A DNA stretch of 64,000 nt from an uncultured Acidobacteriota bacterium (GCA_963848695.1 CAWKEI010000010.1:4905-68904); one strand, 5' to 3'. Positions 11,034 to 62,840 are shown, numbered from the stretch's first letter. Notes: generated by a model not told the origin, from the sequence alone. Program-made: numbers and translations.

Positions 11034-12116
11034 TCAACCAACGAGGAGCGGGATCTCGACCTCGTCCTGGGCGAGGCCACCGTGGTAGGCCCGAAGCCGC
11101 TTGTCGAACCCAGGGGGAAGGAGCACCTTGCCTGGCGGGGCAAGGAGGAGGGCGTCGCCTGACCTGGCGCGCGCCTCAAGGCCGGGTTCGGCGCCGAATT
11201 GGGTGAGAGGGTCGGTCAGCTCCACCCCGACATGTCGGGCGAGGGCATCGAGCAAATCGGGCTCTCCCCAGACATGAACCCCCCTCGGATCTCCCGCATA
11301 GCGGAGAGAATGGAACGGCTCCTGGCGGATGAGGACCTTGTCATCCTCGTTGTAGTCGATCAGCCCGTGGTCGGCTGTTCCCAGCACGGTGACGTCGGGC
11401 GGCATCCTCGAGACGATCTCCTCCCAGAGGTTGGCGGCGAGACGGACCGCCTCGGCAAACTCCGCAGAGGCGAGCCCATGGACATGGCCGGCGAAGTCGA
11501 CCGGCCAGAAGTACGTGAAGATGAGCCGGTTCGGCTCCGCAGCGAGCTGCACCGTGGCCTCCGCGAGATCGTGTTCGTCCCAGGTGCGTTCGAAGCGAGC
11601 GCCGCGGTAGAGCAAGCGGGAGAGAGGGCTGCCGGCGAAAGGCCCCGGCTGAACCGTGATCGGCTCGATGCCGGCCTGGCGAAGCCGTTCCCAGAGATTG
11701 GGTCGGGCCAGGAACGACCCGTAGTCATGATGGACCGGCTGGCCGGACAGATCCACCCATTTCAAGGTGTTCACCACGCGTCCCGCCTCCTCCAACCAGC
11801 AGAGATGGGAGATGAGACCGTGCTGCCCGGGCGCGAGCCCGGTGGCCACGGTGGCCAGAGCGACACTCGTCGTGGTTGGAAAGGGCGCTCGCAACGTCTC
11901 TCGATGCGATTCGCGCAAGGATCGGGCTGCCTCGTGGGCCAGTTGTGCAGTGCCGAGACCGTCGAACAGGATGAGGACATATGACCGCCCGTCAGGGATC
12001 GACCTGGCGATCGAGGGGTCGAGCGGAAGTGATGGCGAGTTGCCGATCAGCCTTGTCTCGAGCTCCGCGACGAGGTTGACCAGACCTGCGGAGTCTGGAG
12101 AGGGGGCGTCCGCCAT
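11034..12116 (-). CDS. alkaline-phosphatase superfamily protein (type I phosphodiesterase / nucleotide pyrophosphatase-like)
   Basis: Metal-site-like motifs LILFDGLG, FPTTTSVALATVATG (Thr nucleophile region) and VLGTADHGL. Confidence 0.55.
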   Translation of the reverse strand: MADAPSPDSAGLVNLVAELETRLIGNSPSLPLDPSIARSIPDGRSYVLILFDGLGTAQLAHEAARSLRESHRETLRAPFPTTTSVALATVATGLAPGQHGLISHLCWLEEAGRVVNTLKWVDLSGQPVHHDYGSFLARPNLWERLRQAGIEPITVQPGPFAGSPLSRLLYRGARFERTWDEHDLAEATVQLAAEPNRLIFTYFWPVDFAGHVHGLASAEFAEAVRLAANLWEEIVSRMPPDVTVLGTADHGLIDYNEDDKVLIRQEPFHSLRYAGDPRGVHVWGEPDLLDALARHVGVELTDPLTQFGAEPGLEARARSGDALLLAPPGKVLLPPGFDKRLRAYHGGLAQDEVEIPLLVG

Positions 12117-12174
12117 CGATCCAGGCTAGGGCCGGCTCCACAGTTTTTGCCGATGGCAGTTGGAGTTTCCAAAC

Positions 12175-12203
12175 TTCGACGGAAAAGGACCCGTGCGTAT
12201 ACT
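12175..12203 (+). promoter_or_regulatory. candidate sigma-70-type promoter of the nuo operon (TTCGAC-17 nt-TATACT)
   Basis: The -35/-10 hexamers with 17-nt spacing lie ~35 nt upstream of the nuoA ATG, and an AGAGG RBS precedes the start. Confidence 0.3.
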
Positions 12204-12236
12204 CGCCCGCGGTGGTGTCCATCGACCCGCAGAGGC

Positions 12237-12602
12237 ATGAGCCCTTACTTTGAGAGCTATCTGACGGTCGGCGCTTTCGCCGTACTGGGCGCCATCCTGG
12301 TGATGGTGATGCTCGGGGTCGCCGCTGTGCTTCGGCCCACCAATCCCACTACCGCCAAACGCCTCACCTATGAGTGCGGCGTTGACCCGGTCGGCTCAGG
12401 ATGGAGCCAGAGTTACGTCCGCTATTACGTCTACGGGCTCCTCTTCGTCATCTTCGACGTCGAGGCAGTGTTTATCTTCCCGTGGGCAATCGTGATCGAG
12501 CAGTTGGGCACCTTCGGTCTCGTCGAGATGTTCATCTTCATCGACATCCTGATCCTGGGTCTGGTCTACGCCGTTCGCAAGGGAGTGCTCCGGTGGGAGT
12601 AG
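12237..12602 (+). CDS. nuoA: NADH-quinone oxidoreductase subunit A
   Basis: 121-aa 3-TM protein with FPWAIV motif. Start taken at the internal ATG (MSPYFESY) after the promoter. Confidence 0.88.
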
Positions 12603-13090
12603 TCCAGAAGTTCGGGGCCCCGAAGCCGGTGACCTGGCTTCTCAATTGGTCCCGGAAATACTCCTTGTGGCTGTTCCAGTTCGGCCTCGCCTGCTGCGCC
12701 ATCGAGCTGATGGCCGCCTCGGGCCCGCGTTTCGACTTCATGCGGTTCGGGATCATCCCGCTGCCTGCCTCCCCCCGCCAGGCGGACTTGATGGTGGTGG
12801 CGGGCACTGTGACCGACAAGATGGCGCCCGCCATTCGCCGTCTCTACGACCAGATGCCCGATCCGAAATACGTGATCTCGATGGGATCCTGCGCCAACTG
12901 CGGCGGGCCTTATTGGGACTCGTACTCGGTCACCAAGGGGGTCGACCAGGTGATCCCGGTCGATGTCTACGTACCGGGCTGCCCGCCCCGCCCCGAGGCG
13001 CTGATGGACGGGATCGTCTTGCTCCAGCAGAAGATCCAAGGCGAGGACATCAAAGAGAAGTGGAGCAGGCGTGACCTCGAGCCCGTCTGA
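12593..13090 (+). CDS. nuoB: NADH-quinone oxidoreductase subunit B (N2 Fe-S subunit)
   Basis: [16 protein letters not shown] and [11 protein letters not shown] cluster-binding motifs. GTG start overlapping the nuoA stop. Confidence 0.9.
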
Positions 13091-13712
13091 GACCGAGGCT
13101 GCGGACTCGGAGGTTGGGGCCGCAGCCCCGCATCCGCTCCAAGAGTTCGCCGATCATGTGGCCGAGACGGTCGGGGGGTCGGCAACGATCACCTTCGACA
13201 CGGTCAAGGTGGAGGTGAGCCCGGACCATTGGGTATCGGCGCTGACCACGGCACGGGACGACCTGGGGCTCGTCTTCTTCTCCTGGCTCTCCGCCGTGGA
13301 CTGGTCGTCCGAAGTCGAGGTGGGCGACCCATTCCCCGAAGAGGTCGAGGATCGTGTGGAGCTCCTGGCCACGGTGGGCGACATCTCAGAGGGGCGGCGG
13401 GTGACATTCTCCACCACCTTGCCCAAGGAATCGCCCTCAGTCGCCAGCCTGGTCGAGGTCTACGCCGGGGCCAACTGGCACGAACGAGAAGCCCATGAGA
13501 TGTTCGGGATTGGTTTCGATGGGCATCCGAACCTCGCCCATCTCTATTTGCCCGACTCCTTTGAGGGGAATCCCCTGCGCAAGAGCTTTCCCCTTCTCAG
13601 CCGGGAGGTGAAGCCTTGGCCAGGCACCGTCGACGTCGAGAAGATGCCCGGTGACAGCGACGAGGAGGGCGAATCGGCGGACGGCCCCTCGGAAGAGAAC
13701 CCGGAGGCGTGA
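13071..13712 (+). CDS. nuoC: NADH-quinone oxidoreductase subunit C
   Basis: [22 protein letters not shown] and [14 protein letters not shown] motifs. Separate from nuoD (not fused). Confidence 0.85.
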
Positions 13713-13713
13713 C

Positions 13714-14904
13714 GTGGTATTAGATCAGGACCTCGTTCGCCATCTCTCCGAGTCGTCGGTCTCGGTGGAGCTCGAGACCGAGGACATGACTCTCAACATC
13801 GGCCCCCAGCATCCATCGACGCACGGTGTCCTCCGGCTCGTGGCCCGGGTCGACGGTGAGCGTGCCTTCGACATCCAGCCGGTGATCGGATACATGCATC
13901 GCGGGTACGAGAAGCTCTCCGAGGTGAGGACCTACCCCCAGATCACAACCCTCGTCAACCGGATCGACTGGGTATCGGGTTACGCAAACGAGATCCCATT
14001 CGTCGTCGCTGCGGAAAAGCTGCTCGGCCTCGAGGTGCCGGAGAGGGCGCAGTACATCAGGCTGATTCTCACCGAGATGGCCCGGATCTCCTCACATCTC
14101 ATCTTCATGGCCTCCTATCCGCTCGAATTGGGGGCGGCGACCCCTCTCTTCTTCGCCCTCAGGGAAAGGGAGCGAGTGCTCGATCTCCTCGAAGGTGTGA
14201 CCGGGGGCAGGTTCCACCCCAACTTCAACCGGATCGGCGGGGTCAAGCCCGCGTACGGGTCTGGCTCGAGCACCCGAAAAGTCATCCAGGACCTCCCAGC
14301 CGGGTTCTTCGCCGAGACCCGGGAGGCGATGGACAAGGTGTTGGAGGCGGTCGATGAGCTCGAGCAGCTGGTCGCCGACAACGAGATCATCCTGGCCCGC
14401 ACCAAAGGCGTCGGGGTCCTGCCTGCCGATGTGGCCGCGGCGTACGGAGTATCGGGCCCCAATCTCCGCGCCTCAGGCGTCGGTTTCGACCTGCGCAAGG
14501 TCGAGAACTACCTGCCATACCACTTGTTCGATTTCGAGATCCCGGTCGGGGAGAACGGGGACTGCTGGGATCGGTGGCATGTGCGCCTCCTCGAGATCCG
14601 CCAGTCGGTCCGAATCGTGCAGCAAGCCGTCGACGGCATCCCGTCGGGGCCGCTTCAGGCCAAGGTGCCCAAGGTCATCAAAGTCCCTCAGGGAGAGACC
14701 TACGTGAGGGCGGAGAACCCAAAGGGGGAGATGGGGTACTACCTCGTGTCCAATGGGAACCAGGGGCCATACCGGCTGAAGATCCGCTCCGCCAGCTTCT
14801 CCAACATCTCCATCCTCCCCTGGATCCTGGAGGGCGTGCTGGTCCCCGACATCATCGCCATCATGGGATCGCTGGATTTTGTGCTCGGGGACGTGGATCG
14901 ATGA
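13714..14904 (+). CDS. nuoD: NADH-quinone oxidoreductase subunit D
   Basis: NIGPQHPSTHGVLRL N-terminal signature, ~397 aa. GTG start just after the nuoC stop. Confidence 0.9.
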   Translation: MVLDQDLVRHLSESSVSVELETEDMTLNIGPQHPSTHGVLRLVARVDGERAFDIQPVIGYMHRGYEKLSEVRTYPQITTLVNRIDWVSGYANEIPFVVAAEKLLGLEVPERAQYIRLILTEMARISSHLIFMASYPLELGAATPLFFALRERERVLDLLEGVTGGRFHPNFNRIGGVKPAYGSGSSTRKVIQDLPAGFFAETREAMDKVLEAVDELEQLVADNEIILARTKGVGVLPADVAAAYGVSGPNLRASGVGFDLRKVENYLPYHLFDFEIPVGENGDCWDRWHVRLLEIRQSVRIVQQAVDGIPSGPLQAKVPKVIKVPQGETYVRAENPKGEMGYYLVSNGNQGPYRLKIRSASFSNISILPWILEGVLVPDIIAIMGSLDFVLGDVDR

Positions 14905-15908
14905 TTGAGTTCGTAACGGAGCTCTTCTCCAACTTCTGGGTCTCGCTGGCCGGGAAGCTGCTCCTAGTCGCCCTGATGATCCCGCTGGTGGGAATGGTCA
15001 TCGGCTTCGCCGAGATGAAGCTCTCCGCCAAGATGCAGGCCCGGGTCGGTCCCTATTTCGCCGGCGGGCGATGGGGGTGGGCACAGCTCATCGCCGATGG
15101 CGTCAAGTTCTTCCAGAAGGAGGACCTGGTCCCGGACGAAGCCGACCGCCCGGTGTTCAAGCTCGCCCCGGTGTTGGTGCTGGTGAGCACGGTCGCCCTG
15201 CTTGTGGTCATCCCATTCGGCCCGGACCTGATCTTCCGGGATCTGTCCGTTGGAATCTTCTTTGCCCTCGCCATCTCGTCGTTGAGCACCGTCGGCATCC
15301 TCATGGCCGGGTGGTCTTCGGGGAACAAGTACTCCTTGATGGGCGGGCTGCGTGCGGCCGGGCAGCTGATCGCCTATGAGTTGCCACTCGTGCTGGCCGT
15401 CATCGGGTCGGTCATCCTCGCCGGGACCATGAGCATGAGCGGGATCGTGGAAGCTCAGATTGCGGCTGGCTACCCCTACGTGATCCTCCAATTCATCGGC
15501 TTCGGGGTATTCATGATCGCCGCGCTTGCGGAGCTGAGCCGGATTCCCTTCGACATGCCGATCGCCGAGTCGGAACTGGTGATGGGCTATCTCACGGAGT
15601 ACTCGGGCTTCCGCTTCCTATTCTTCTTCCTCGCCGAGTTCGCCAACATGTTCTCCCTCTCGGCGATCGCGGTCACCCTGTTCCTCGGCGGGTACTGGCT
15701 GCCGGGCATACCCGAGGATGCCCTGGCCTATGCCGGGCCCGTCATCCTGCTCGGCAAGACGTTCCTTCTCGTCTTCACCATGATCTGGTTTCGCTGGACC
15801 TTCCCCCGGTTCCGTGAGGACCAACTGCAGAATCTGGCCTGGAAGTGGCTCATCCCCTTGGCCCTGGCCAACATCATCCTCACCGGGGCCTTCAAGGTGT
15901 ACTTGTGA
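14901..15908 (+). CDS. nuoH: NADH-quinone oxidoreductase subunit H, follows nuoD directly (no nuoE/F/G)
   Basis: [16 protein letters not shown]...[32 protein letters not shown], 8-TM. ATGA overlap with the nuoD stop. Confidence 0.9.
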
Positions 15909-15940
15909 CGACGACGAACAACCGTCGTGTGCTGCCCGGC

Positions 15941-16405
15941 ATGGGAATGGCCAAGGGGCTGTGGGTGACCATCTACACGATGTTCCGCACCATCTTCCGC
16001 CCCGGGAAGTACCTGGCCACGGTCAACTACCCCAAGGTCAAGGAGACCCCGGTGCCCCGGGCCCGAGGGGTGATCGCCCTCGACCAGGAGGCGTGCACGG
16101 TGTGCATGCTCTGCGCCCGAAACTGCCCCGACTGGTGCATCTATATCGAGGGACACAAGGAGGAGAAGGCGCCGGACAAGCCCGGCGGCCGGATCAAGGT
16201 TCGCAACACCCTCGACCGGTTCGATATCGACTACGCCCTGTGCATGTACTGCGGAATCTGTGTCGAGGTCTGCCCCTTCGACGCCCTGTTCTGGTCGCCG
16301 GAGTACGAGTACTCGGAGACCCATATGGGTGAGATGCTCCATGACATGGATCGGCTCCAGGACTGGTTGGAGACGGTGCCGGCAGACCCGGAGCTGGAGA
16401 AGTGA
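15941..16405 (+). CDS. nuoI: NADH-quinone oxidoreductase subunit I (2x[4Fe-4S])
   Basis: Two ferredoxin motifs [12 protein letters not shown] and [12 protein letters not shown]. Start may be the GTG 12 nt upstream. Confidence 0.88.
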
Positions 16406-16953
16406 GTTTGGGTGACTGGGTCTCGGCTCCGATCAACTGGGTTTTCGTCGTGGTCGGGGGTTTGACCCTGTTCTCATCGATCAAGGTGGTGACCTCCAAG
16501 AACGTGGTCCACGCCGCCCTGTACCTGATCGGCGCCCTCGGTGGCACCGCCGTCTTGTTCCTGATGCTCTCGGCCGAGTTCGTCGCATGGGTCCTGGTCC
16601 TGGTCTACATCGGTGCAGTCTTGGTCCTCTTCCTCTTCGGGATCATGATCACCCGAGCTCCCACCGGGAAGGACGTGGGGCTGGACTCGCCGAAGAAGGT
16701 ATTGCCCGCGATTCTCTCCGCAACCACCTTCGTCCTCCTCTCCTGGGCCTCCATCGATGGTTTCGGGTCCACCGAGATCGAAGGGCTGGGTGAGGCAACT
16801 TCGACCGAAGTGCTCGGGCTGTCGCTGTTGGGGCGGTTTGTCATCCCATTCGAGGTGGTGTCCTTCGTTCTCCTCGCCGCGCTCGTCGGCGGGATCACCA
16901 TCGCCCGGCGTGATCTGAGCCCTCTCGAAGAAGAACAGCGGGGGGCGGTCTGA
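16402..16953 (+). CDS. nuoJ: NADH-quinone oxidoreductase subunit J
   Basis: 183-aa membrane protein with NuoJ-like N-terminus. GTGA overlap with the nuoI stop. Confidence 0.85.
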
Positions 16954-17258
16954 TGTTGCTCAACCAGTTCCTGATCCTGGCGGCGGCGATGTTCTCCCTC
17001 GGCATCTATGGCCTGCTCGTCCGGCGCAACATCGTGTTGATCCTGCTCTCGGTGGAACTGATGCTGGCCGCGGTAAACATCAACTTGATCGCCTTCGAGT
17101 CGGTCCTCAGATCCCCCGATGCCATCGGCCAGGTCTTCACGGTGTTCGTCATCACAGTGGCCGCCGCCGAGGTCGGGATCGGGCTGGCCATCGTCCTGAT
17201 GATCTTCCGCAATAGGAAGTCTGCAAACGTCGACGAGCTCAATCTGATGAGATGGTGA
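16953..17258 (+). CDS. nuoK: NADH-quinone oxidoreductase subunit K
   Basis: 101 aa, [26 protein letters not shown]...ELMLAAVNINLIAF. Confidence 0.9.
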   Translation: MLLNQFLILAAAMFSLGIYGLLVRRNIVLILLSVELMLAAVNINLIAFESVLRSPDAIGQVFTVFVITVAAAEVGIGLAIVLMIFRNRKSANVDELNLMRW

Positions 17259-17270
17259 AAGTGGCTGTGT

Positions 17271-17372
17271 TTGATTGCCGGCCGACTTCGCCCTTCGGCA
17301 ACCCTCATGTCGCGAGGTGGGCCTCCTATCGCGTCATCACACCTCAGGGCGAACAGACGCCGGTCGGCCGGG
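17271..17372. repeat. ~100-nt hairpin-forming intergenic repeat, copy A, inserted between nuoK and nuoL
   Basis: The 24-nt 5' block TTGATTGCCGGCCGACTTCGCCCT and the 3' block GGGCGAACAGACGCCGGTCGGCCGG are shared with 55883..55986. The blocks can pair (CCGGCCGAC/GTCGGCCGG, TTCGCCC/GGGCGAA) around a ~52-nt variable loop. Confidence 0.5.
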
Positions 17373-17397
17373 GCTTCCGCCTCGCTGGAGATCGACC

Positions 17398-19425
17398 GTG
17401 AGCTGGATCATCGCGACTGAGGCGGAGCACGCGGTCGAGGCCGGTGTGACCGGTGGGTTCTGGGTGGACACCGCCGGGATCATGCTGCTCCTCCCCCTCG
17501 TCGCCTTCCTGCTCATCCTCGCTGTCGGGAAGAGGATGAAGTACCACGGAGCCGAGATCGCCATCGCGGCGCTCGCCATCAACAGCCTCTGGGCCACCGT
17601 CCTGTTCGTCATGAACATGACCGACGGCGTCCTCGCCCAGGAAACCTTCGAGATCGCCTCGATCGGGAGCAATCTCGTCTTCGAGCTGGGATGGGTGGTC
17701 GACGGTCTGTCGATCATGATGTACTTCTTGGTCAACGTGGTCGGCCTGATCGTGTTCATCTACGCGGTCGGCTACATGAAGGGCGACATCAGGGTCGATT
17801 GGTTCTTTGCCGCTTTCTCCCTTTTTGCCGGCTCGATGCTCATCCTGGTGGGCGCCCCCAACCTGATCCAGCTGATCATCGGGTGGGAGGGGGTCGGTCT
17901 CGCTTCCTACTTCCTGATCGGCTTCTACTGGGAGGACATGGCCAACGTGAACGCGGGCAACAAGGCGTTCATGGTCAACAAAGTGGCCGACGTCGGGCTG
18001 ATCCTGGGGGCGATCATCCTCGGGCTCGCCATCGGCACGTTTGACTTCTTCGACATGAGCACGGCTGCCTTCGAGCACTCCGAGCCCCTTGGCGCAGTTG
18101 CCGTCGTCGGTGGAGCCCTGCTCTTCTTTGGAGCGATGGGCAAGAGTGCCCAATTCCCCCTTCACATCTGGCTCCCCGACGCGATGGCCGGCCCGACCCC
18201 GGTCTCGGCGCTGATGCACGCGGCCACCATGGTCACTGCCGGGATCTATCTGATGGGTCGGGTGTTCCCCCTCTTCGAGTACCTCGCCTTCGACATCAGG
18301 CCCTGGATGGTGGCGATCGGGGCCATCACGCTCTTCGGCGTCGGTCTCCTCGCCCTGGTGGCCGACGACATCAAGAAGGTGCTCGCCTATTCCACCGTCT
18401 CCCAGCTCGGGTACATGATGACCGCGGTGGCAGCGGGCGGCTACACGGCCGGCCTCTTCCACCTCTTCACCCACGCCTTCTTCAAGGCACTTCTCTTCCT
18501 TGGGGCCGGGGCGGTGATCCACGCCGTCCATTCCAACAACATGAGCGACATGGGAGGTCTGCGCAAGGCGATGCCCCGCACCTACTGGACCTTTGTCGTC
18601 GGCTCCCTCTCTCTAGCTGGGATCATCCCCCTGGCCGGGTTCTGGTCCAAGGACGAGATCCTGGTTGCCCTGGGTCACGAGGGTTACGTCGCCGTGATGT
18701 GGATCGCCATCGCCGGCGCCTTCGTCACGGCTTTCTACATGACCCGAGCGGTGGCCCTCACCTTCCACGGGGAGTACAAGGGCCAGGGCCACCCCCACGA
18801 GGCACCCGCCATCATGACCGTGCCTTTGGTCTTCTTGGCCATACCGTCGATCCTCTTCGGGTTTTTCAATGTCCCCGGCTGGGAGATCCCCGGCATCGGG
18901 AACTTCAGCCAATGGCTGGCGGTGCGGGTAGTCCCGATGGGCGACGAGCACGCCGAGGCGATCGATCTGGTTCTGGCCGGGAGCGGGTTGTTCGCCGCGC
19001 TCCTCGGCATCGCTCTGGGGTGGATGGTCTGGGGCAAGGACCGGGCGACTCAGGCGGAGCGGGACCGCTTCGAGGTCCCGGCGCTCTATCCGCTGCTGCG
19101 CAACAAGTACTACGTCGACGACCTCGCCGATGGGATCACCGCCGGGACGATGGGCCCGGTGGCCCGGTTCATCAACTGGGTCAACGACTACGTGATCGAC
19201 TGGATCGTCAACGGTGTGGCCTTCCTCACCAAGGGTCTGGGCTCTTTCGTCTACGGCGTGGTCGATCAGCGCGGGGTCGACGGTGTGATCCATGGTCTTG
19301 GCGCCGGGGCGGACGGCGCCGGATCGGCCCTACGGCGATTGCAGACGGGCCGGATTCAGCAGTACGCGGCGTCGTTCGTCGGGGGCGCCCTGGTCTTGAT
19401 CGTCCTGTTCGTGTTCGTGATATAG
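17398..19425 (+). CDS. nuoL: NADH-quinone oxidoreductase subunit L (antiporter-like)
   Basis: 676 aa from GTG (VSWIIATEAE). The upstream part of track ORF 17275.. is translation of the repeat element. Typical NuoL TM architecture with C-terminal long helix region. Confidence 0.9.
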   Translation: MSWIIATEAEHAVEAGVTGGFWVDTAGIMLLLPLVAFLLILAVGKRMKYHGAEIAIAALAINSLWATVLFVMNMTDGVLAQETFEIASIGSNLVFELGWVVDGLSIMMYFLVNVVGLIVFIYAVGYMKGDIRVDWFFAAFSLFAGSMLILVGAPNLIQLIIGWEGVGLASYFLIGFYWEDMANVNAGNKAFMVNKVADVGLILGAIILGLAIGTFDFFDMSTAAFEHSEPLGAVAVVGGALLFFGAMGKSAQFPLHIWLPDAMAGPTPVSALMHAATMVTAGIYLMGRVFPLFEYLAFDIRPWMVAIGAITLFGVGLLALVADDIKKVLAYSTVSQLGYMMTAVAAGGYTAGLFHLFTHAFFKALLFLGAGAVIHAVHSNNMSDMGGLRKAMPRTYWTFVVGSLSLAGIIPLAGFWSKDEILVALGHEGYVAVMWIAIAGAFVTAFYMTRAVALTFHGEYKGQGHPHEAPAIMTVPLVFLAIPSILFGFFNVPGWEIPGIGNFSQWLAVRVVPMGDEHAEAIDLVLAGSGLFAALLGIALGWMVWGKDRATQAERDRFEVPALYPLLRNKYYVDDLADGITAGTMGPVARFINWVNDYVIDWIVNGVAFLTKGLGSFVYGVVDQRGVDGVIHGLGAGADGAGSALRRLQTGRIQQYAASFVGGALVLIVLFVFVI

Positions 19426-19441
19426 GAGAGGTAGAGAGCAA

Positions 19442-21058
19442 ATGGAATTGTTCGAAACGTGGGCCCTCACCCTCATCGTGTTCTTGCCGCTGGCCGGTGT
19501 GCTCCTGATCGGCATCATCCCGAAGACGAACGAGATGGCCCTGAAAGGCACGGCACTGCTGGTCAGCGTGGCCGCGTTTCTTCTCTCCCTGGCGGTGATC
19601 TCACAATTCGATTTCTCGGGGGTCCCCTACAACACCTACCAGTTCGAAGTCAACGAAACCTGGATCGGGGCGATCAACGCCAACTATCACCTCGGTGTCG
19701 ACGGGATCAGCCTTCCCCTCCTCGTCCTCTCCACATTCGTGATGGTGCTGTCGGTCATCTACAGCTGGAACCACTGGGAGGAGCCGCACAACCCCAAGGC
19801 CTTCCTGATCCTCATGCTGATCCTCGCCACCGGGCTCAACGGCACCTTCCTCGCCCTCGATCTGGTCCTCTTCTTCATTTTCTTCGAAGTGGTGCTGCTC
19901 CCGATGTACTTCATGATCGGGATCTGGGGCGATCGCAGCCCGCGGGCGATCCCCGGTTACGGGCGTGAGGTGCAGACCCGTCTCTACGCCGCGATCAAGT
20001 TCTTCCTCTTCACACTGTTCGGTTCCGCCTTCATGCTGCTGGGGTTCCTCGCCCTCTATTTCGAGTCGGGCAACTCGGGCGGCGAGCGCACCTTCGACAT
20101 CACGCAACTGACCGAGCTCGGGGCCTCCGGCGCCTTCACCGGGAGATTCGCCTTCCTGGTCTTTTTCGCCATGTTCCTCGGGTTCGCGGTGAAGGTCCCG
20201 ATGTGGCCACTCCACACCTGGCTGCCCGACGCCCATACCGCTGCACCGACGGTGGGGTCGGTCCTCCTCGCCGCCATCATGCTGAAGCTCGGGTCATACG
20301 GATTCATCAGGATCTCCCTGCCCATCCTCCCCGAGGAGGCGGCCAGTTGGGCCCCCGCCATAGCCATCCTGGCCGTGATCGGCATCATCTATGGGTCGCT
20401 GGCCTGTCTCGCTCAGACCGACATGAAGCGGCTGATCGCGTTCTCCTCGGTCGGTCACATGGGCTTTGTGATGCTCGGGATCGCGACGATGACCGATGTC
20501 GGCATCAACGCCGCCATCATCGGGATGGTGGCCCATGGGCTCATCACCGGACTGCTCTTCTTCCTGGCCGGCTCGATGTCACATCGGTACCACACGAGAG
20601 AGATGTCCCGTCTCGGCGGCAACATGAAGCTGATGCCGGTCATGGGTGGGATCCTGGCCTTCACCGCCATGGCTTCCCTCGGGCTCCCCGGGTTGGCCGG
20701 CTTCTGGGGTGAGTTCATGTCGCTGATCGGCGCCTACAACCCCTTGGCGGGGCTGTCGTTGGGTGTTTTCCGCACCGCGATGGTGATCGGCGCGATCGGG
20801 ACGGTGCTGACGGCCGCGTACATGCTCTACCTGCTCCAGCAGGTCAACCTCGGTGAGCCGGGGGAGGAGTGGCAGGGACACAAGTTCCACGACGTCGACC
20901 GTTTCGAGATGACGGCGTGGGTCCCACTCATCGTCCTGATCGTGGTGATCGGTTTCTATCCCAAGGTCATCTTCAACGCCACCACGGATTCCGTCGTGTC
21001 GCTCGTGGACATGGTGTTCGGTTCCGACACCGTGGCATCCGTTGGGCGGGGAGGCTGA
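19442..21058 (+). CDS. nuoM: NADH-quinone oxidoreductase subunit M
   Basis: 538-aa antiporter-like subunit with conserved WLPDAHTAAPTVGSVLLAAIMLKLG segment. Confidence 0.9.
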   Translation: MELFETWALTLIVFLPLAGVLLIGIIPKTNEMALKGTALLVSVAAFLLSLAVISQFDFSGVPYNTYQFEVNETWIGAINANYHLGVDGISLPLLVLSTFVMVLSVIYSWNHWEEPHNPKAFLILMLILATGLNGTFLALDLVLFFIFFEVVLLPMYFMIGIWGDRSPRAIPGYGREVQTRLYAAIKFFLFTLFGSAFMLLGFLALYFESGNSGGERTFDITQLTELGASGAFTGRFAFLVFFAMFLGFAVKVPMWPLHTWLPDAHTAAPTVGSVLLAAIMLKLGSYGFIRISLPILPEEAASWAPAIAILAVIGIIYGSLACLAQTDMKRLIAFSSVGHMGFVMLGIATMTDVGINAAIIGMVAHGLITGLLFFLAGSMSHRYHTREMSRLGGNMKLMPVMGGILAFTAMASLGLPGLAGFWGEFMSLIGAYNPLAGLSLGVFRTAMVIGAIGTVLTAAYMLYLLQQVNLGEPGEEWQGHKFHDVDRFEMTAWVPLIVLIVVIGFYPKVIFNATTDSVVSLVDMVFGSDTVASVGRGG

Positions 21059-21061
21059 TCC

Positions 21062-22546
21062 TTGCCGTTCGAGATCGACTATCTGGCGCTCGCTCCGGAG
21101 CTGGTGGTGGTGGCCACCATGCTCGGTGTATTCGCCCTCGATCTCGTCCTTCCCCGGTCCAAGAAGTTCTGGACGGCGACCCTGGCAGTTGCGGGCACCG
21201 CTCTGGCCGCTGTCCCGCTGGTGATCCTGGCCGCCGAAGGGACGGTCAGGTCGATGTTCGACGGCTCCTATGTCGTCGACGAATTCGCAGTGATCCTCAA
21301 AGGCGTCTTCATCGTCTCGGCGTACATCGTGCTCCTTATGTCGCACCACTACATCGAGTCCGATCGCTACTACCAGGGCGAGTACTACTTCCTGCTGCTG
21401 GCGTCGGTGCTCGGCTCGCTGGTGATGGCATCGTCTCGCGACCTCATCATCCTGTTCATCGGCCTCGAGCTCACCACCGGCCCGCTCTATCTGCTCGCTG
21501 GTTGGAGGAAGGGCGACGCCAAGTCCAACGAAGCCTCGATGAAGTACTTCATCCTCGGGGTTCTCTCCACCGCGATCCTGCTCTACGGCATGTCGCTGCT
21601 GTACGGGCTCACCGGTGAGGTCACTTTCGCCGGTCTCGCCGAAGCGACCGCCGGCCTCGCCGACGAGCCGATCATGGTGGTGGCCCTCTTCGGGCTGATC
21701 GTCGGGTTCGGATTCAAGATCTCGGCGGTTCCGTTCCACTTCTGGGCACCCGACACGTATGAGGGCGCTCCCACCCCGGTGGCCGCCTATCTATCGGTCA
21801 ACTCGAAGGCAGCCGGCTTCGTCGCCTTCCTCCTGATCATGTACCAGGCATTGCCCGACATCTCCGAGGTGTGGGCGCCGGCCTTGTGGATCCTGGCGGT
21901 GGCCTCGATGACGGTCGGCAATCTGGCGGCTCTGCGCCAGACCAACATCGTCAGGCTGCTCGCCTATTCGTCCATCGCCCAGGCCGGGTTCATGCTGGTC
22001 CCCTTCGCCTCGGCCGCCGTGGCCGGCGCCGACCTGGCCGAGGCGTTTTCGGCGACCCTGGTCTACCTGGTGATCTATGCCGTGATGAACCTGGGGGCAT
22101 TCGCCGTGGTCATCGCCGGGGCGAGGAAGACCCGATCCGGAGAGATAGCGGATTGGGCGGGCCTCGCCCAGGTCGACGTCAGGCTGGGTGTCCTCGTGGC
22201 GGTGTTCTTCTTCAGTCTCGCCGGCATCCCGCCCCTGGCGGGCTGGTTCGCCAAGTTCGCCATGTTCCGCTCGGTGATCATCGCCGGCGGTACCGCCACA
22301 GTGGTCCTCGCCGCCATTGCCGCGGTGAACTCGGTGATCGCGTTCTACTACTACGCCCGGGTGGTGAAGTCGGTCTGGCTCGACGACCCGATCCGCGAAT
22401 TCGCTCCTGAGGCCGAGGCGGCGCCGGCCGGCTCGCTCCGGCTGGCCCTGCTGGTGTCTCTGACGATCACGGTCCTGGTCGGGTTCTTCCCGGCGATCGC
22501 CACTTTCATCGGAGAAGCCAGCCGGGTCATCGCCAGCGGCGGCTGA
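21062..22546 (+). CDS. nuoN: NADH-quinone oxidoreductase subunit N
   Basis: 494-aa antiporter-like subunit with FHFWAPDTYEGAPTPVAAYLSV motif. Last gene of the operon. Confidence 0.9.
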   Translation: MPFEIDYLALAPELVVVATMLGVFALDLVLPRSKKFWTATLAVAGTALAAVPLVILAAEGTVRSMFDGSYVVDEFAVILKGVFIVSAYIVLLMSHHYIESDRYYQGEYYFLLLASVLGSLVMASSRDLIILFIGLELTTGPLYLLAGWRKGDAKSNEASMKYFILGVLSTAILLYGMSLLYGLTGEVTFAGLAEATAGLADEPIMVVALFGLIVGFGFKISAVPFHFWAPDTYEGAPTPVAAYLSVNSKAAGFVAFLLIMYQALPDISEVWAPALWILAVASMTVGNLAALRQTNIVRLLAYSSIAQAGFMLVPFASAAVAGADLAEAFSATLVYLVIYAVMNLGAFAVVIAGARKTRSGEIADWAGLAQVDVRLGVLVAVFFFSLAGIPPLAGWFAKFAMFRSVIIAGGTATVVLAAIAAVNSVIAFYYYARVVKSVWLDDPIREFAPEAEAAPAGSLRLALLVSLTITVLVGFFPAIATFIGEASRVIASGG

Positions 22547-26045: not shown

Positions 26046-27107
26046 GTGAGCCAACCTGTGAAAAAGCGTCTGATCATCATCGGTGCGGTTGTCGCCGTAC
26101 TGCTCCTCGGGACAGGAGCATTCTTTGCCATGTCCACCTGGGGAGATGTCAATCGGGTCAGCCTCGACCAAGAGCGGCCTCAGATCCAGGTTCCAGAGGA
26201 GGACGCGTCCGTCGACGAGTCGGATGCCGAAACCGACCTTCTGGGCTCCGCTCCGGCAGGCACCGAGGTGTACCTCCTGGTCGGCTCGGACTCGAGAGAT
26301 CATCTCGAGAGCGTCGAGGGTTTTGGCGACTTCGCCGGGCAGAGGGCCGACGTCGTGATGGTGCTGATTCGCCCCGCCGACGGGTCGAGAGCCGCCCTCC
26401 TGTCCCTTCCTCGAGATCTCCTCGTCGACAATGTCTGCCAACAGGGAGGCGAGCATCGTCTCAACGATGCCCTCCAGGGATGCTCGGCGGTCAACGGGGC
26501 CACGGCCCTGGCCATGACCGTGGAGTCGGTCATTGGCCAAAACGTGGATCATTTCGCATTGGTCGACCTGGCTGGTTTCCAGGAGGCTGTCGATGCGGTA
26601 GGCGGATACGAGATATGTGTCGAACGGGCGGTCCGCGATCAGAGGTCGCTGCTCGAGTTGCCGGCCGGGTGCACACTCGCCACCGGGGCCGAGACATTGG
26701 CTTGGTTGCGCTCGCGGAGCACCGAGGAGCTGACCGCCGAAGGATGGCGGGTCATGCCCGGTGTCAATGATCTGACCAGGAACCAGCGTCAGAGGGAATT
26801 CCTTCTCACCATGATGGGCCAGCTGTCCGATTTCGGTAGCCCCACCGCCATCGCCGATGCGGCGTCGACGATCGCGCCCTTCATCACTGTCGACTCCGAG
26901 CTGTCCTTCCTGGATGCGGTAGATCTGGCTTGGACGATGCGTGGGCTGAGCCGAGGCCACATCGACGAGCTGGAGATACCGGTCTCAGACGCGACCACGG
27001 CGTCTGGCGCAGCCGTACTCGTTGCTGGTGTGGACATCGCCGACCTGGTCGACGACTACCTCGCCCCGGAGATCGCCGAGGACGACTCCGGCGCTTTCGC
27101 TGGTTGA
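26046..27107 (+). CDS. LytR-CpsA-Psr (LCP) family cell-envelope phosphotransferase
   Basis: N-terminal TM anchor, YLLVGSDSRD and ADVVMVLIRP...LLSLPRDLLV LCP core motifs. Confidence 0.8.
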   Translation: MSQPVKKRLIIIGAVVAVLLLGTGAFFAMSTWGDVNRVSLDQERPQIQVPEEDASVDESDAETDLLGSAPAGTEVYLLVGSDSRDHLESVEGFGDFAGQRADVVMVLIRPADGSRAALLSLPRDLLVDNVCQQGGEHRLNDALQGCSAVNGATALAMTVESVIGQNVDHFALVDLAGFQEAVDAVGGYEICVERAVRDQRSLLELPAGCTLATGAETLAWLRSRSTEELTAEGWRVMPGVNDLTRNQRQREFLLTMMGQLSDFGSPTAIADAASTIAPFITVDSELSFLDAVDLAWTMRGLSRGHIDELEIPVSDATTASGAAVLVAGVDIADLVDDYLAPEIAEDDSGAFAG

Positions 27108-28099
27108 GGCTCCCGCCCGGTCAGATCGAGACCAAGCGATTCCCCATCGTCGGCGAGCGAACGCCATCGGCCGAGCTGGCCGACCCAGGGTGGTGGCGGC
27201 TCGACCTGACCGGGTCCGTCCACAGCCCGATCACCCTCGATCTCGATGCCTTCCTCGCCCGCGCGGTCCAGGAGCTCGTGTTCGACATCCATTGCGTCAC
27301 GAGCTGGTCTCGCTTCGGCTCCACCTGGACCGGGCTCCCGTTGGGAATCCTCCTCGACGAAGCCGGGCTCCTCGAGCAGGCTCGTTTCGTCTCCTTCGAG
27401 GCCTACTCGGAGCGCGGCCACCACACGTCGCTTCCACTCGATGTGGCGCGGGATGACAGCTGGCTGGTGCATTCGTTCGAAGGGAAACCACTCGAGGTCG
27501 GCCACGGTGGGCCGGTAAGGGTCGTCACCCCCAGCCGTTACTTCTACAAGTCGATCAAGTGGGTGCGGCGCATCGTGGTTCTCGAGGAAGACCGGCTCGG
27601 GTGGTGGGAGGAGGGCTCCTATTACCACAACAACGCCGATCCTTGGGCGGGCGACGAACGATTCACCACCGGCTCGATCCGCCCCGACCAATTGGACCGG
27701 TTCGTCCATGCCCGGTCTTACGACAAATACCGGAGCCGGGTGATGATGGGGCTCGATCTGCGAGGTTGGGTGCCCGCCAAAATGGACCTGCGACGTCTCT
27801 ATCTGAAGAACTGCGACATCCGCGGCGTCGATCTGGCCGGGGCGGATCTGCGTGAGTCGAATCTCTCCCTCAGCGACCTGCGGGGGGCTGATTTGCGGGG
27901 CGCCGATCTCTCCGGTTCCGATCTCGAAGGAGTCAATTTCTCCGGAGCCAACCTGGCCGGGTCCGATCTGAGCGCGACGGCTCTCTCCGCTACTCGTTTC
28001 GTCGACGAAACAGGTGGCGCCATCCTCGAGGGCGCCAGGTTCGACGGCTCGTATGGGCTGGTCGAAGCCCAAGAGGAGTACGTCGCCAGTCGCGCCTAG
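27104..28099 (+). CDS. sulfite-oxidase-like molybdopterin-binding oxidoreductase domain fused to a C-terminal pentapeptide-repeat domain
   Basis: The N-terminal ~200 aa carry the Mo-site motif HCVTSWSRFGSTWTGLPL (Cys ligand) and RVVTPSRYFYKSIKWVRRIVV. The C-terminal ~90 aa are tandem A(D/N)LxG pentapeptides (DLRGADLRGADLSGSDLEGVNFSGANLAGSDL). The start (TTG overlapping the LCP stop) is uncertain. Confidence 0.6.
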   Translation: MRLPPGQIETKRFPIVGERTPSAELADPGWWRLDLTGSVHSPITLDLDAFLARAVQELVFDIHCVTSWSRFGSTWTGLPLGILLDEAGLLEQARFVSFEAYSERGHHTSLPLDVARDDSWLVHSFEGKPLEVGHGGPVRVVTPSRYFYKSIKWVRRIVVLEEDRLGWWEEGSYYHNNADPWAGDERFTTGSIRPDQLDRFVHARSYDKYRSRVMMGLDLRGWVPAKMDLRRLYLKNCDIRGVDLAGADLRESNLSLSDLRGADLRGADLSGSDLEGVNFSGANLAGSDLSATALSATRFVDETGGAILEGARFDGSYGLVEAQEEYVASRA

Positions 28100-32764: not shown

Positions 32765-32885
32765 GAGAGTTCTCCCCGCATCAACCGGGGGTTGCCGAAG
32801 GGCGAAGTGGGCCGGCAACAACAGAGGCGAGCTTTCAGTACGTATGTTGAGTTGCCGATAAGACCTGACAAGTCCAGGGAGCCAG

Positions 32886-34916
32886 TTGGACCTCAACACC
32901 CCCGAGCTGATGCGGATATTCCGCGACGAGCTGGAAGATCGTTCCGGTCGCTTGGTCGCGGGCGCGATCGCTCTTCGCCAAAACGATCTCGATGATGCAC
33001 GCCTCCAGAACCTGATCCGGGACGCCCACACCATCAAGGGCTCGGCGGGCCTGCTCGGATACGACGACATCAGACAGGTCGCCGCACGTCTCGAGCATCT
33101 CTGGAAGCAGATCTCCGAGGGATACTCGCCGCCCAGCGACGTTATCGTGGCCATGGAGGCAGGTGCCGGGCGTCTTCTTCCTTCGCTCGATGGGGACGAT
33201 GCTGATCTCGCCTCCATCGCCGACAAGCTCCTGCTTGCAGAGCGACCCGAGGACATGGGCGAGGGAGCTGATTGGTCCCCGCCGGCCGAGGTCATCCCAT
33301 TGCGGCGTCCCGAGCCAGGCAGTCTCGGGGGGCTACTCACCTCCGTGTCCGACTCCCTGCTCGGCGGGTCGACCCGGGTCGACACCGGTGAGCTCTACCG
33401 CCTCATCAACCGCATCGTCGAGGTCTCGCTCGATTCCGAAGCGCTGGCCGACCTCTCACTGCTCTCGATCGAGGGATCGGACCCGGCTCTCTTCAGGAAA
33501 TCCTGGCGTCAGCAATTGGAGAGGCTCGCCGCCTCCGTCTCCGAGATCCAGGATCAGGCCGTTGCCCTGGCCAACATCCCGTTCCGGGAAGCCACTGCCA
33601 CCTTCCCCCAATTCGTTCGTTACCTGGGCCGACGGATGGGCAAAGACGTCCGCTTCGAGCTCGTGGGCGACGACGTGCAACTCGATCGGCAGATCGTCGA
33701 CCTACTCCGCGAGCCGCTGCGCCACCTCCTGGTCAATGCCATCGACCATGGGATCGAGCCCACGCAGGTCCGTGTCGCCGCCGGGAAGAGGGCAACCGGG
33801 ACGGTGAGTGTCGGCGCCGAGATCATCGACGAGCGAGTCGAGGTGTCGGTCTCGGACGACGGCCGCGGGATCGATTGGGACAAGGTGGCCGACGTGGCCA
33901 CCGAGCGAGCCATCCCCTTCGTCTTCTCCGACCTGAGCCCCGTTCTGTTCCAACCCGGCTTCACGACTGCCGACCTGGTCACCGACTTCTCCGGTGCGGG
34001 TGACGGGCTGGCGGCAGTGCGGGACATCGTGGAGAAGGTCAACGGCGTGGTCCACGTCGAGAGCCCCGAGGGCATGGGGACACGCGTCACCATGACGCTG
34101 CCCCTCTCAATGGTGCTGCAGAACGTGGTGGTGGTCGCTACCGGGGACCAGTTCTGGGGTCTTCCCGAGGCGTCGATCGAGGCGGCCATGCCGCTCACCC
34201 GGGCCGAGATCAGCCCAACCGATGGCGGCCGGGAGGTCAGATTCCAGAGCAGGGAGATCCCATGTGTCTCGTTGGCGAAGGCAATGGGTGTGACCAACCC
34301 GGGAGATGAGTCCGAGCTGTTGGTCATCAACACCAGGTTCGGGCTGGTGGCCATCACCGTCAGCGAGCTCATCGATCGTCGTCGTGTTGCGGTGAAGAAC
34401 CTCGGCCCGATCCTGGAAGGAAGCGGCCACGTGACCGGAGCGGCCCTGCTCGGAGGTGGCCAGGTCCTCGTTGTCCTCGACCCGAATTTCCTTGGCTATC
34501 TCGCCAAGCGGCGCCCAGGCGTCGTTGGGCGCCGCCCCCGGATCCTGGTTGTCGACGATTCGGCCGGCGTCCGCCAGCTCCTCTCGGCCACCCTGAACGG
34601 GGCCGGCTTCGAGGTCGAGGTGGCCGCAGGGGCACGTGAGGCGATGATGGCAATGGTCAATGTGGGTTTCGAGGCGATGGTCATCGACTTTTCGATGCCC
34701 CGGTCCAACGGCGTCGAGCTGGTTAGGGCGATGCGCGCCTCCGACCAGAATGTCCCCATCGTCATGGTCTCTGGTGTTGCGACTCAGGACGAGAAGCAGG
34801 CGGCTTGGGAAGCCGGGGTTGATGCGTACCTGGACAAGTTCGACCTTCGCCAGGGCGTGCTCACCGAGACCCTGCGCCGGATGATCGGCGTCGACGAGGG
34901 TGCCGACGCCGGCTGA
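32886..34916 (+). CDS. CheA-like hybrid histidine kinase: Hpt - HATPase_c - CheW-like - receiver domain
   Basis: Hpt HTIKGSAGLLGY. N-box LVNAIDHGIE, G1 DDGRGID, G2 GAGDGL. CheW-like block (VVVATGDQFWGLPEASIEAA...VAITVSELIDRRRVAVKNLG). C-terminal REC domain (ILVVDDS...MVIDFSMP...AYLDKF). Confidence 0.75.
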   Translation: MDLNTPELMRIFRDELEDRSGRLVAGAIALRQNDLDDARLQNLIRDAHTIKGSAGLLGYDDIRQVAARLEHLWKQISEGYSPPSDVIVAMEAGAGRLLPSLDGDDADLASIADKLLLAERPEDMGEGADWSPPAEVIPLRRPEPGSLGGLLTSVSDSLLGGSTRVDTGELYRLINRIVEVSLDSEALADLSLLSIEGSDPALFRKSWRQQLERLAASVSEIQDQAVALANIPFREATATFPQFVRYLGRRMGKDVRFELVGDDVQLDRQIVDLLREPLRHLLVNAIDHGIEPTQVRVAAGKRATGTVSVGAEIIDERVEVSVSDDGRGIDWDKVADVATERAIPFVFSDLSPVLFQPGFTTADLVTDFSGAGDGLAAVRDIVEKVNGVVHVESPEGMGTRVTMTLPLSMVLQNVVVVATGDQFWGLPEASIEAAMPLTRAEISPTDGGREVRFQSREIPCVSLAKAMGVTNPGDESELLVINTRFGLVAITVSELIDRRRVAVKNLGPILEGSGHVTGAALLGGGQVLVVLDPNFLGYLAKRRPGVVGRRPRILVVDDSAGVRQLLSATLNGAGFEVEVAAGAREAMMAMVNVGFEAMVIDFSMPRSNGVELVRAMRASDQNVPIVMVSGVATQDEKQAAWEAGVDAYLDKFDLRQGVLTETLRRMIGVDEGADAG

Positions 34917-34971
34917 GGATCGAAATCGCGCCCCTTCAGGTAGCTTTTGAGCAGAGCGAAAGAGACGTGAG

Positions 34972-35877
34972 TTGCCCCAGATACCGGATTCACTGAGCTG
35001 GCTGTCCCTCGCCCTCGCCGTGGTGGGTGTGGTGGGCGTCGTCTGGGCCATCGCCATCACCCGTCAGGGCCGGCAGCGCGAGCGTGAGGTGATGCGTCTC
35101 TCCGAGGAGGCGCACCGGATCAAAGACGAGTTCGTGGCCATGGTGAGCCATGAGCTGCGAACTCCCTTGACCTCGATCGCCGGATTCGCCGACACATTGG
35201 TGGAGTCGTGGAAGGACCTGCCCGACGAAGAGGTCGACGAGTTCCTCGGGATCATCAACCGCCAGTCGATATACCTGAGCGACCTGGTGGAGGACGTTCT
35301 GGTCATCCCGCGTCTCGAGGCGGACCGGCTCCGCTTCCACCCCGAGTTGTTCGATCTCGGCGATCTCCTCGGCGATGTTGCCAAGATGGTGTTCCCGACC
35401 GGCGGGAGGAAGAGCGCAGTCGTCTCGCTTCCCGACGGGGTGAGGGTCCGGGCCGATCGCCGCAGAGTTCAACAGGTGATCCGGAACCTGATGGAAAACG
35501 CCCGCAAGTACGGCGGAGATCAGGTGATGGTCGAAGGCTTCGTCCTCGGGGATCAATACCTCGTTGTCATATCCGACAACGGGCCCGGCGTCCCCGACGA
35601 AGAGACACAGCGTGTGTTCGAGAACTTCGAACAGGTATCGAAGGGCGACAGCAGGGAGGCGACCGGGATCGGCTTGGGTCTTCCCATCGCCCGGCGACTC
35701 GCACGCGCCATGGGAGGAGAGGTTTGGTATGAGCGCCGGTTCCCGACAGGTGCCCGCTTCTGCTTCTCACTTCCGCTGCGTCGCCGGTCGGTCATGGGCG
35801 AGGACGAGGTGCAGGAGGTGGTCGATCTGGATGCCACCGCCTCGGTGGAGTTCGACGACACGGTGCTCGCCAACTGA
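34972..35877 (+). CDS. membrane-anchored sensor histidine kinase (HisKA + HATPase_c)
   Basis: One N-terminal TM helix, H-box VSHELRTPLTSI, N/G boxes NLMENARKYGG and DNGPGVP...GIGLGL. Confidence 0.8.
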   Translation: MPQIPDSLSWLSLALAVVGVVGVVWAIAITRQGRQREREVMRLSEEAHRIKDEFVAMVSHELRTPLTSIAGFADTLVESWKDLPDEEVDEFLGIINRQSIYLSDLVEDVLVIPRLEADRLRFHPELFDLGDLLGDVAKMVFPTGGRKSAVVSLPDGVRVRADRRRVQQVIRNLMENARKYGGDQVMVEGFVLGDQYLVVISDNGPGVPDEETQRVFENFEQVSKGDSREATGIGLGLPIARRLARAMGGEVWYERRFPTGARFCFSLPLRRRSVMGEDEVQEVVDLDATASVEFDDTVLAN

Positions 35878-57157: not shown

Positions 57158-57231
57158 GAGAGGGCCGATTTGACCGCCCGCGGCTTGCCTTCGCTGACAT
57201 AATCCGGGGACCCCGAGAGAAGGGATGATCC

Positions 57232-61909: not shown

Positions 61910-61954
61910 CCGGACGGTACCCGTCTGTCTACCTGCTCCACCGCTTGCGAGAGC

Positions 61955-62818: not shown

Positions 62819-62840
62819 CAGCGTTGATACCGCCTATCAC

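Follow-up and report, generated by a model that had tools for sequence, protein, structure and literature searches.

We describe an operon of eleven co-directional genes, nuoA-B-C-D-H-I-J-K-L-M-N, encoded on the plus strand of a 64,000-nucleotide stretch of DNA listed as an uncultured Acidobacteriota bacterium and treated here as part of a soil Acidimicrobiia genome (GCA_963848695.1, CAWKEI010000010.1:4905-68904; the whole stretch is hereafter the window, and positions are counted from its first letter). The operon occupies positions 12237-22546 and includes genes for eleven subunits of complex I, without nuoE, nuoF and nuoG. The best explanation, to which we assign a probability of about 0.55, is that these genes encode a second, anciently paralogous complex-I-like pump of Acidimicrobiia that belongs to the nuo2 lineage, is kept in relatives next to a canonical 14-subunit NADH:menaquinone oxidoreductase and is probably fed by ferredoxin. 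The gene content is already of a known kind, that of a described actinobacterial second nuo lineage, and reports of the 11-subunit type without NuoEFG from Actinobacteria go back to 2011 (PMC3144371). What is new here is modest, namely the complete 11-gene form in Acidimicrobiia, the link to nuoD2 of Streptomyces and a clade-wide tryptophan at the quinone site. A literature search for Acidimicrobiia together with nuoEFG found nothing relevant.

Gene content and the missing N-module

Each of the eleven open reading frames (ORFs) scores above the Pfam gathering threshold for one core complex I family, and the NCBIfam names agree with those from Pfam. NuoB, NuoD, NuoH, NuoK, NuoL and NuoM pass curated NCBIfam cut-offs for Nuo subunits; NuoA, NuoC, NuoI and NuoJ fall under every curated cut-off. 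The ATG of nuoH (14901) overlaps the TGA of nuoD (14902-14904) in the sequence cgATGAttg, so there is no room for nuoEFG within the operon. Genes nuoC and nuoD are separate and unfused. An earlier note on this DNA had described the eleven-gene content, the ATGA overlap (14901-14904) and the unfused nuoC and nuoD, and in these respects it was borne out. About 50 further ORFs spanning the whole 64 kb were also compared with Pfam. We did not identify among them any match to the families of NuoE, NuoF and NuoG (2Fe-2S_thioredx, Complex1_51K and NADH-G_4Fe-4S_3), nor any FrhB/FpoF-type domain. A tblastn search with E. coli NuoE, NuoF and NuoG (locus L081) at E<=1e-3 returned no match in the window or in 80 related loci.

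The related loci derive from a scan of species-representative genomes for NuoD, which returned 544 relatives; locus comparisons made use of the best 80 of these. All 80 are metagenome-assembled genomes of Acidimicrobiia, mostly from soil, with NuoD identities of 82-96%. Across these species-level genomes the orthologous subunits are 56-99% identical, NuoC being the least conserved (56-82%). In all 78 of the related loci that extend past nuoD, the order ABCDHIJKLMN is retained and nuoH follows nuoD at a distance of -12 to 506 nt. These are independent assemblies and include closed chromosomes. Thus, the loss of a segment between nuoD and nuoH, which the earlier note had raised as an objection to its own reading, is excluded. 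The suggestion that faulty assembly or annotation produced the operon, or that it is a pseudo-operon in decay, has virtually no chance of being correct: in addition to the identical order in 78 assemblies and the identities among orthologues, all eleven frames are intact, with high third-position GC as in real genes, and the catalytic residues are conserved (see below). This conservation already refutes the suggestion, and we found no point in its favour.

Large gaps between nuoD and nuoH in three relatives were checked for hidden donor genes; two of them contain antisense ORFs of the 23S_rRNA_IVP family and no redox proteins. These ORFs (L046:11215-11709 and L063:11251-11634, both on the minus strand; Pfam E ~1e-33) lie in nuoD-nuoH spacers of ~480-510 nt, which is an odd place for them. 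At two other loci (L054:13633-16906 and L070:13550-15604), an insert of 2-3 kb, with unrelated genes in both orientations, separates nuoK from nuoL. Judged by eye, the inserted genes resemble those for an ECF sigma factor with its anti-sigma factor, for a methyltransferase and for a membrane protein.

Relationship to canonical complex I and to nuo2

Evidence for both nuo sets on one contig was obtained for 14 of the 80 relatives; the contigs of two of these (L003 and L061) were verified directly and the other 12 were assigned by tblastn or contig matching. Nine related loci have a second nuoL'M'N' set, 33-45% identical and on the same strand, that ends 4.5-7 kb upstream. By way of a NuoL' fragment from locus L016 we identified locus L082, which encodes nuoC-D-E-F-G-H-I-J-K-L-M-N with 2Fe-2S_thioredx, Complex1_51K and NADH-G_4Fe-4S_3 domains. 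A search with NuoF of this locus gave matches that were assigned to seven contigs with the 11-gene operon (L003, L016, L019, L038, L051, L061 and L077). On DATHUP010000049.1, from which L003 derives (NuoD identity to the window 95%), nuoABCD, three genes and nuoEFGHIJKLMN are located at ~64-82 kb; the 11-gene operon begins at ~106 kb and the canonical set is 24 kb upstream of it. The closed 2,609,530-bp chromosome of L061 encodes a contiguous nuoA-N at ~578-592 kb, 8.7 kb upstream of the 11-gene operon, which begins at ~601 kb. In the closest relative with two systems, the canonical operon is broken between nuoD and nuoE by three opposite-strand genes with HAAS, PadR and Amidohydro_2 annotations (L084:6345-9234).

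The subunits encoded in the window are 33-47% identical to the canonical paralogues of L082, about as distant from these as from E. coli. Judged from their sequences, the two nuo sets are old paralogues. No nuoL'M'N' set was found in the window's own 12 kb upstream of the operon. The earlier note had proposed a search for a second 14-gene nuo locus. Such loci do occur in relatives, in the two that were verified and, on the evidence above, in 12 more; for the genome from which the window comes, the search covers these 64 kb. It had also reasoned that a nuoEFG cluster elsewhere, clearly pairing with this operon, would speak against a missing module. In the relatives nuoEFG sits in its own complete operon, so there is no clear pairing. 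Given its coexistence, in close relatives, with a complete NADH-dependent complex I, the question of the donor concerns an auxiliary enzyme, that is, a specialised side entry into the chain and not the main NADH route of the organism. Acidimicrobiia are a widespread soil class, in which the enzyme without NuoEFG is a second, long-diverged system.

Compared with solved structures, NuoD of the window matches Nqo4 of T. thermophilus best (361 bits) and cyanobacterial NdhH second (344 bits); the score of M. smegmatis NuoD is only 259 bits, and hydrogenase large subunits reach 157 (MBH) and 145 bits (FHL), against 361 for Nqo4. Read from the sequence, NuoD has GPQHPSTHG in the loop, no CxxC at the C-terminus and no hydrogenase NiFe cysteines, and the lack of NiFe cysteine motifs sets it apart from the group-4 membrane hydrogenases. 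Relative to Nqo4 and NdhH, a ~22-residue segment is absent and a 13-residue insertion is present. Over its full length this short NuoD can be aligned with PRK12322, FpoD and the MBS subunit. The Fpo models of NCBIfam give 341 bits for FpoD (cut-off 600), 372 for FpoL (1050) and 44 for FpoI (180), with a weak-to-moderate match to FpoH (268 bits); the Ndh models give 368 for NdhH (583), 51 for NdhI (302), 61 for NdhJ (175) and 91 for subunit 3 (145). As all Fpo and Ndh scores are far under the cut-offs, we conclude that the enzyme is neither Fpo nor NDH-1. The comparison with Fpo, NDH-1 and canonical Nuo that had been proposed in the earlier note therefore eliminates the first two by profile score, and the tree described next points to the actinobacterial NuoD2/nuo2 lineage.

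A search of 1.84 billion cluster representatives showed a gap in NuoD identity, between 71% for members of the clade and 51% or less for all other sequences. The nearest relatives overall are NuoD proteins of ~387 amino acids (aa) from Kitasatospora, Streptomyces, Actinoallomurus, Nocardioides and Streptosporangiaceae, the genes for which stand alone in the two contexts examined. NuoD of the window is ~50% identical to NuoD2 of Kitasatospora, Streptomyces and Actinoallomurus. The nearest named relatives with the tyrosine typical of the quinone site are from Chloroflexi and Carboxydochorda (Limnochordia), and both are encoded in (A)BCDHIJKLMN operons without nuoEFG. In a neighbour-joining tree (366 columns, 100 bootstraps), NuoD of the Acidimicrobiia operon and actinomycete NuoD2 form a clade with 95% bootstrap support, and canonical Acidimicrobiia NuoD clusters with canonical types (97%). 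Thus, we place the operon in the nuo2 lineage, a kinship judged on NuoD alone among the subunits, and it appears to be the complete 11-gene form of the described actinobacterial second nuo2/nuoD2 system.

Streptomycetes have a complete nuoA-N, a nuo2 operon (A2, B2, H2, I2, pseudo-J, K2, L2, M2 and N2) and a separate nuoD2 (PMC8388888). Shared with the operon described here are the presence of an extra complex I set without EFG beside a complete nuoA-N (in our case, in relatives) and Trp at the position of the quinone-site Tyr. The layout differs: in Streptomyces, nuoD2 lies apart from the operon, no nuoC2 is listed and nuoJ is present as a pseudogene (PMC8388888), whereas here one compact operon contains all eleven genes, nuoC and nuoD among them. 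The link to the genetically tractable Streptomyces-type nuo2/nuoD2 makes the question of the donor testable in culturable relatives. Also different is the context of actinomycete nuoD2, which adjoins a gene for a methyltransferase of the NDUFAF7/MidA family, whereas the operon here does not; a search for NDUFAF7-like methyltransferases found none in the window or in the Acidimicrobiia loci. In Kitasatospora, the start of stand-alone nuoD2 overlaps the end of a Methyltransf_28 (PF02636) gene. A Methyltransf_28 gene also occurs ~2 kb from a stand-alone nuoD-like gene on a second actinobacterial contig; the regions concerned are L089:7003-9164 and L085:6860-11182. We take Methyltransf_28 to be the family of NDUFAF7/MidA, the arginine methyltransferase whose substrate is the NuoD homologue of mitochondria.

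The 11-subunit enzymes known from Firmicutes and Chloroflexi, for example that of Desulfitobacterium hafniense (Moparthi & Hagerhall 2011), resemble the operon in gene set and order, (A)BCDHIJKLMN, and in a short NuoD without the ~22-residue segment of canonical NuoD and NdhH; the question of the donor is common to both. In contrast, the Chloroflexi and Limnochordia enzymes keep the quinone Tyr, many of that type are from anaerobes, and in the Limnochordia relative NuoC and NuoD are fused. With canonical 14-subunit complex I (E. coli, T. thermophilus and M. smegmatis) the operon shares all eleven subunits of the quinone-reducing (Q) and proton-pumping (P) modules and the cofactor and pump residues, but it lacks NuoE, NuoF and NuoG, has Trp in place of Tyr87 and is only 33-47% identical to the paralogue of its own lineage. 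Cyanobacterial and chloroplast NDH-1 and archaeal Fpo/Fqo are likewise without an N-module, and take electrons from ferredoxin or F420H2. Unlike those systems, the locus here encodes neither extra subunits of the oxygenic type nor FpoF or FpoO.

The quinone site, the electron donor and competing explanations

Trp86 of NuoD (codon at 13969-13971, plus strand), in the motif NRIDWVSGYANE, aligns with Tyr87 of Nqo4, with the Tyr of NdhH and with Tyr273 of E. coli NuoCD; the earlier note did not mention this exchange. Trp is found at this position in 80 of 80 orthologues (motif NRIDW) and, as NRHDW, in 116 of 119 actinomycete NuoD2 sequences, N-R-x-D-W being common to both groups. The canonical Acidimicrobiia paralogue retains Tyr. 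Among 150 family representatives aligned with three reference sequences, 101 have Tyr and 31 have Trp; these counts were taken from the full alignment, which replaced an unreliable regular-expression motif scan. The only other named sequences of the Trp type are NuoCD fusions of Methanofastidiosia and Methanonatronarchaeales. A scan for near-invariant NuoD columns that are altered in the clade returned position 278 only, which looks like an alignment slip. Trp86 lies just under the 85% threshold of that scan because a few other lineages vary at the position too.

The quinone-headgroup Tyr (Tyr108 of bovine NDUFS2) is one of two proton-donor ligands (PMC9120487), and its replacement by Trp86 suggests a changed mode of quinone binding or protonation. 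Trp is nonetheless compatible with quinone reduction, as considerable inhibitor-sensitive Q1/Q2 reductase activity remains in the Yarrowia mutants Y144F, Y144W and Y144H (PMC9120487). We found no description of a natural Tyr-to-Trp variant of NuoD in a literature search, which is not proof of novelty. The residue offers a ready natural experiment with which models of complex I, of its quinone reduction as well as its coupling, can be compared. A more far-reaching proposal, which we regard as tentative and unlikely to hold in full, is that the exchange is a fixed hallmark of the Acidimicrobiia 11-gene enzyme and actinomycete NuoD2 and may mark a pump with altered acceptor chemistry and a donor other than NADH; on this view, the fragmented Streptomyces nuo2 would have its ancestral, complete form in the intact Acidimicrobiia operon. 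The altered chemistry may involve different binding or protonation of menaquinone, a non-quinone acceptor, or preferential operation in reverse.

Other functional residues were checked at a set of positions in E. coli numbering. The four NuoB cysteines of cluster N2 and the eight NuoI cysteines of N6a and N6b are all retained. NuoD retains the His of the beta1-beta2 loop and has Glu138 at the position equivalent to Asp139. Asp74 and Glu76 of NuoA align with E. coli D79 and E81. Also retained are NuoK E35 and E73, NuoL E205, D239, K290, K404, K459 and D460, NuoM E149, K251, K282 and E424, and NuoN E136, K219, K249 and K398. The only other differences at the checked sites, to which we attach no weight, are I221 in NuoH, where E. 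coli has E216, and K90 in NuoJ, where E. coli has E80. The predicted anatomy is that of a working Q-module and P-module.

In the mechanism that we propose, NuoB, NuoC, NuoD and NuoI would form the Q-module, and NuoA, NuoH, NuoJ, NuoK, NuoL, NuoM and NuoN the P-module, of a redox-driven proton pump without an N-module. A low-potential soluble carrier would hand electrons to the exposed N6a cluster of NuoI, from which they would pass via N6b and N2 to a membrane acceptor, presumably menaquinone, in the cavity of NuoD/NuoB/NuoH. The reaction would drive proton export via NuoH/A/J/K and NuoL/M/N. We infer donor identity, acceptor identity and proton pumping alike. Cyanobacterial NDH-1 and Fpo that lacks FpoF provide the analogy on which we favour reduced ferredoxin as the most likely donor, and a ferredoxin model for 11-subunit enzymes has been proposed for Desulfitobacterium (PMC11238625). 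The only conserved neighbours of the operon in the 80 loci are phosphodiesterase, GNAT and NUDIX genes; no redox gene is among them, which fits a diffusible donor. The earlier note had left the donor open, and so it stays: it is not readable from the locus, and for complex I enzymes without EFG it was an open question in 2011 (PMC3144371) and still in 2024 (PMC11238625).

Several points count against a ferredoxin-fed second pump. The operon has no linked gene for a ferredoxin, for an enzyme that reduces ferredoxin or for a docking subunit, and the argument for ferredoxin is purely one of analogy. With Trp86 in place of the quinone-protonating Tyr, ordinary reduction of menaquinone is not assured. 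The canonical NuoEFG of the lineage could in principle be shared. In addition, 64 kb of the window's genome were seen, and we infer coexistence with a canonical nuo in that genome from close relatives.

Sharing of this kind would make the enzyme a second NADH:menaquinone oxidoreductase isozyme, in which the eleven subunits borrow NuoE, NuoF and NuoG of the canonical operon and have different Q- and P-modules. The canonical nuoEFG is 8.7-24 kb off on the same contig or chromosome in relatives, and Spero et al. raised such sharing for Syntrophobacter, where a single nuoEFG accompanies duplicate copies of the remaining genes (PMC4453560). We nevertheless consider it unlikely, as nuoEFG of the relatives is enclosed by its own A-D and H-N, the identity between paralogues is low (33-47%), and the sister lineages in Chloroflexi and Limnochordia also have operons without EFG. 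Furthermore, the most divergent subunits, under all NCBIfam Nuo cut-offs, are NuoC and NuoI, which in published structures help to build the docking surface of the N-module. It is somewhat less probable still that the enzyme is no conventional menaquinone reductase, and uses another acceptor or partner or works mainly in reverse, reducing a low-potential carrier at the expense of the proton motive force. The fixation of Trp across the 80 orthologues, its presence in 116 of 119 NuoD2 sequences, the Tyr of 101 family representatives (named Trp types being otherwise confined to Methanofastidiosia and Methanonatronarchaeales) and the role of that Tyr as a proton-donor ligand of the quinone headgroup (PMC9120487) are consistent with this idea. 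However, the Yarrowia Y144F/W/H mutants still reduce Q1 and Q2 (PMC9120487), and the loop His, Glu138 and the N2 ligands are retained.

An F420H2:quinone oxidoreductase of the Fpo/Fqo type, with an FpoF/FqoF-like subunit encoded elsewhere, is improbable. F420 is common in Actinobacteria, and the core subunits match Fpo models weakly to moderately (FpoD 341 and FpoH 268 bits). However, every Fpo model is far under its cut-off, the window ORFs include no FrhB/FpoF-type domain, the 80 loci have no conserved redox neighbour, and the 12-subunit version with FpoF is confined to Euryarchaeota (PMC3144371).

Gene calls, signals and other features of the window

The earlier note began the operon at 12175. 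The best start of nuoA is instead the ATG at 12237, which is preferred on account of an AGAGG-like ribosome-binding site; the 121-aa product (12237-12602; Pfam Oxidored_q4, 122 bits) can be aligned over its full length both to its orthologues and to the 122-aa NuoA model of NCBIfam. All that was identified at 12176-12203 (plus strand) is a sigma-70-like promoter match from a motif scan (TCGACG-16-TATACT), 34 nt 5' of nuoA. It is the sole match in 11 kb, versus 1.6 expected by chance; it is well placed but statistically unremarkable, and is no evidence of function. Matches in a terminator scan all fall inside genes. When the entire window was compared with Rfam at gathering thresholds, no RNA family matched, so there is no riboswitch or leader.

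The genes are tightly packed and translationally coupled. The GTG start of nuoB (12593-13090), read from the sequence, overlaps the nuoA stop; its product carries cluster N2 and matches Pfam Oxidored_q6 and an NCBIfam NuoB subfamily (238 bits, cut-off 116). Gene nuoC (13071-13712) overlaps nuoB and encodes an unfused protein of 213 aa with an acidic C-terminal tail (Complex1_30kDa, 112 bits). One base past its end begins nuoD (13714-14904), which encodes the short type of NuoD, with 396 aa (Complex1_49kDa, 283 bits; NF004739, 418 bits against a cut-off of 360). NuoH (14901-15908) has 335 aa (NADHdh, 352 bits; NCBIfam NuoH, 324 bits against 305). NuoI (15941-16405), with 154 aa, is predicted to hold the two 4Fe-4S clusters N6a and N6b, and matches Fer4 dicluster families. 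Both nuoJ (16402-16953; Oxidored_q3, 121 bits) and nuoK (16953-17258; Oxidored_q2, 96 bits, and above the NCBIfam NuoK cut-off) overlap their predecessors. The frame of nuoL is open from 17275, and the gene likely starts at a GTG with GGAG 8 nt upstream (17398-19425; Proton_antipo_M; NCBIfam NuoL, 605 bits against 556). The operon ends with nuoM (19442-21058; Proton_antipo_M; TIGR01972, 560 bits against 264) and nuoN (21062-22546; Proton_antipo_M, 221 bits). All of these genes are on the plus strand.

Upstream, the operon is flanked by a gene of a phosphodiesterase family, and downstream by one of the RibD_C family. Both are on the opposite strand, so the eleven genes form a self-contained unit. 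Over 12001-22000, GC is 0.62-0.63 in the operon versus 0.65-0.67 in the flanks, with a strongly negative AT skew. This is expected of T-rich genes for membrane proteins, and we draw no conclusion of horizontal transfer from it.

Elsewhere in the window, one frame on the plus strand (26840-28099) combines an Oxidored_molyb domain (sulfite-oxidase-type molybdopterin) with C-terminal pentapeptide repeats, which is an unusual pairing. At 32862-35877 (plus strand) are encoded a CheA-like hybrid kinase, with the domains Hpt, HATPase_c, CheW and receiver, and immediately after it another histidine kinase. Also present is a gene for a membrane protein (57229-58428, plus strand) with a weak match to COX1, under the cut-off (26 bits versus 34.8); it is flanked by genes for acyl-CoA dehydrogenase and enoyl-CoA hydratase. 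A kynurenine-pathway cluster on the minus strand (59703-62833) includes genes for tryptophan 2,3-dioxygenase, a kynureninase-like protein of the aminotransferase fold and an alpha/beta hydrolase.

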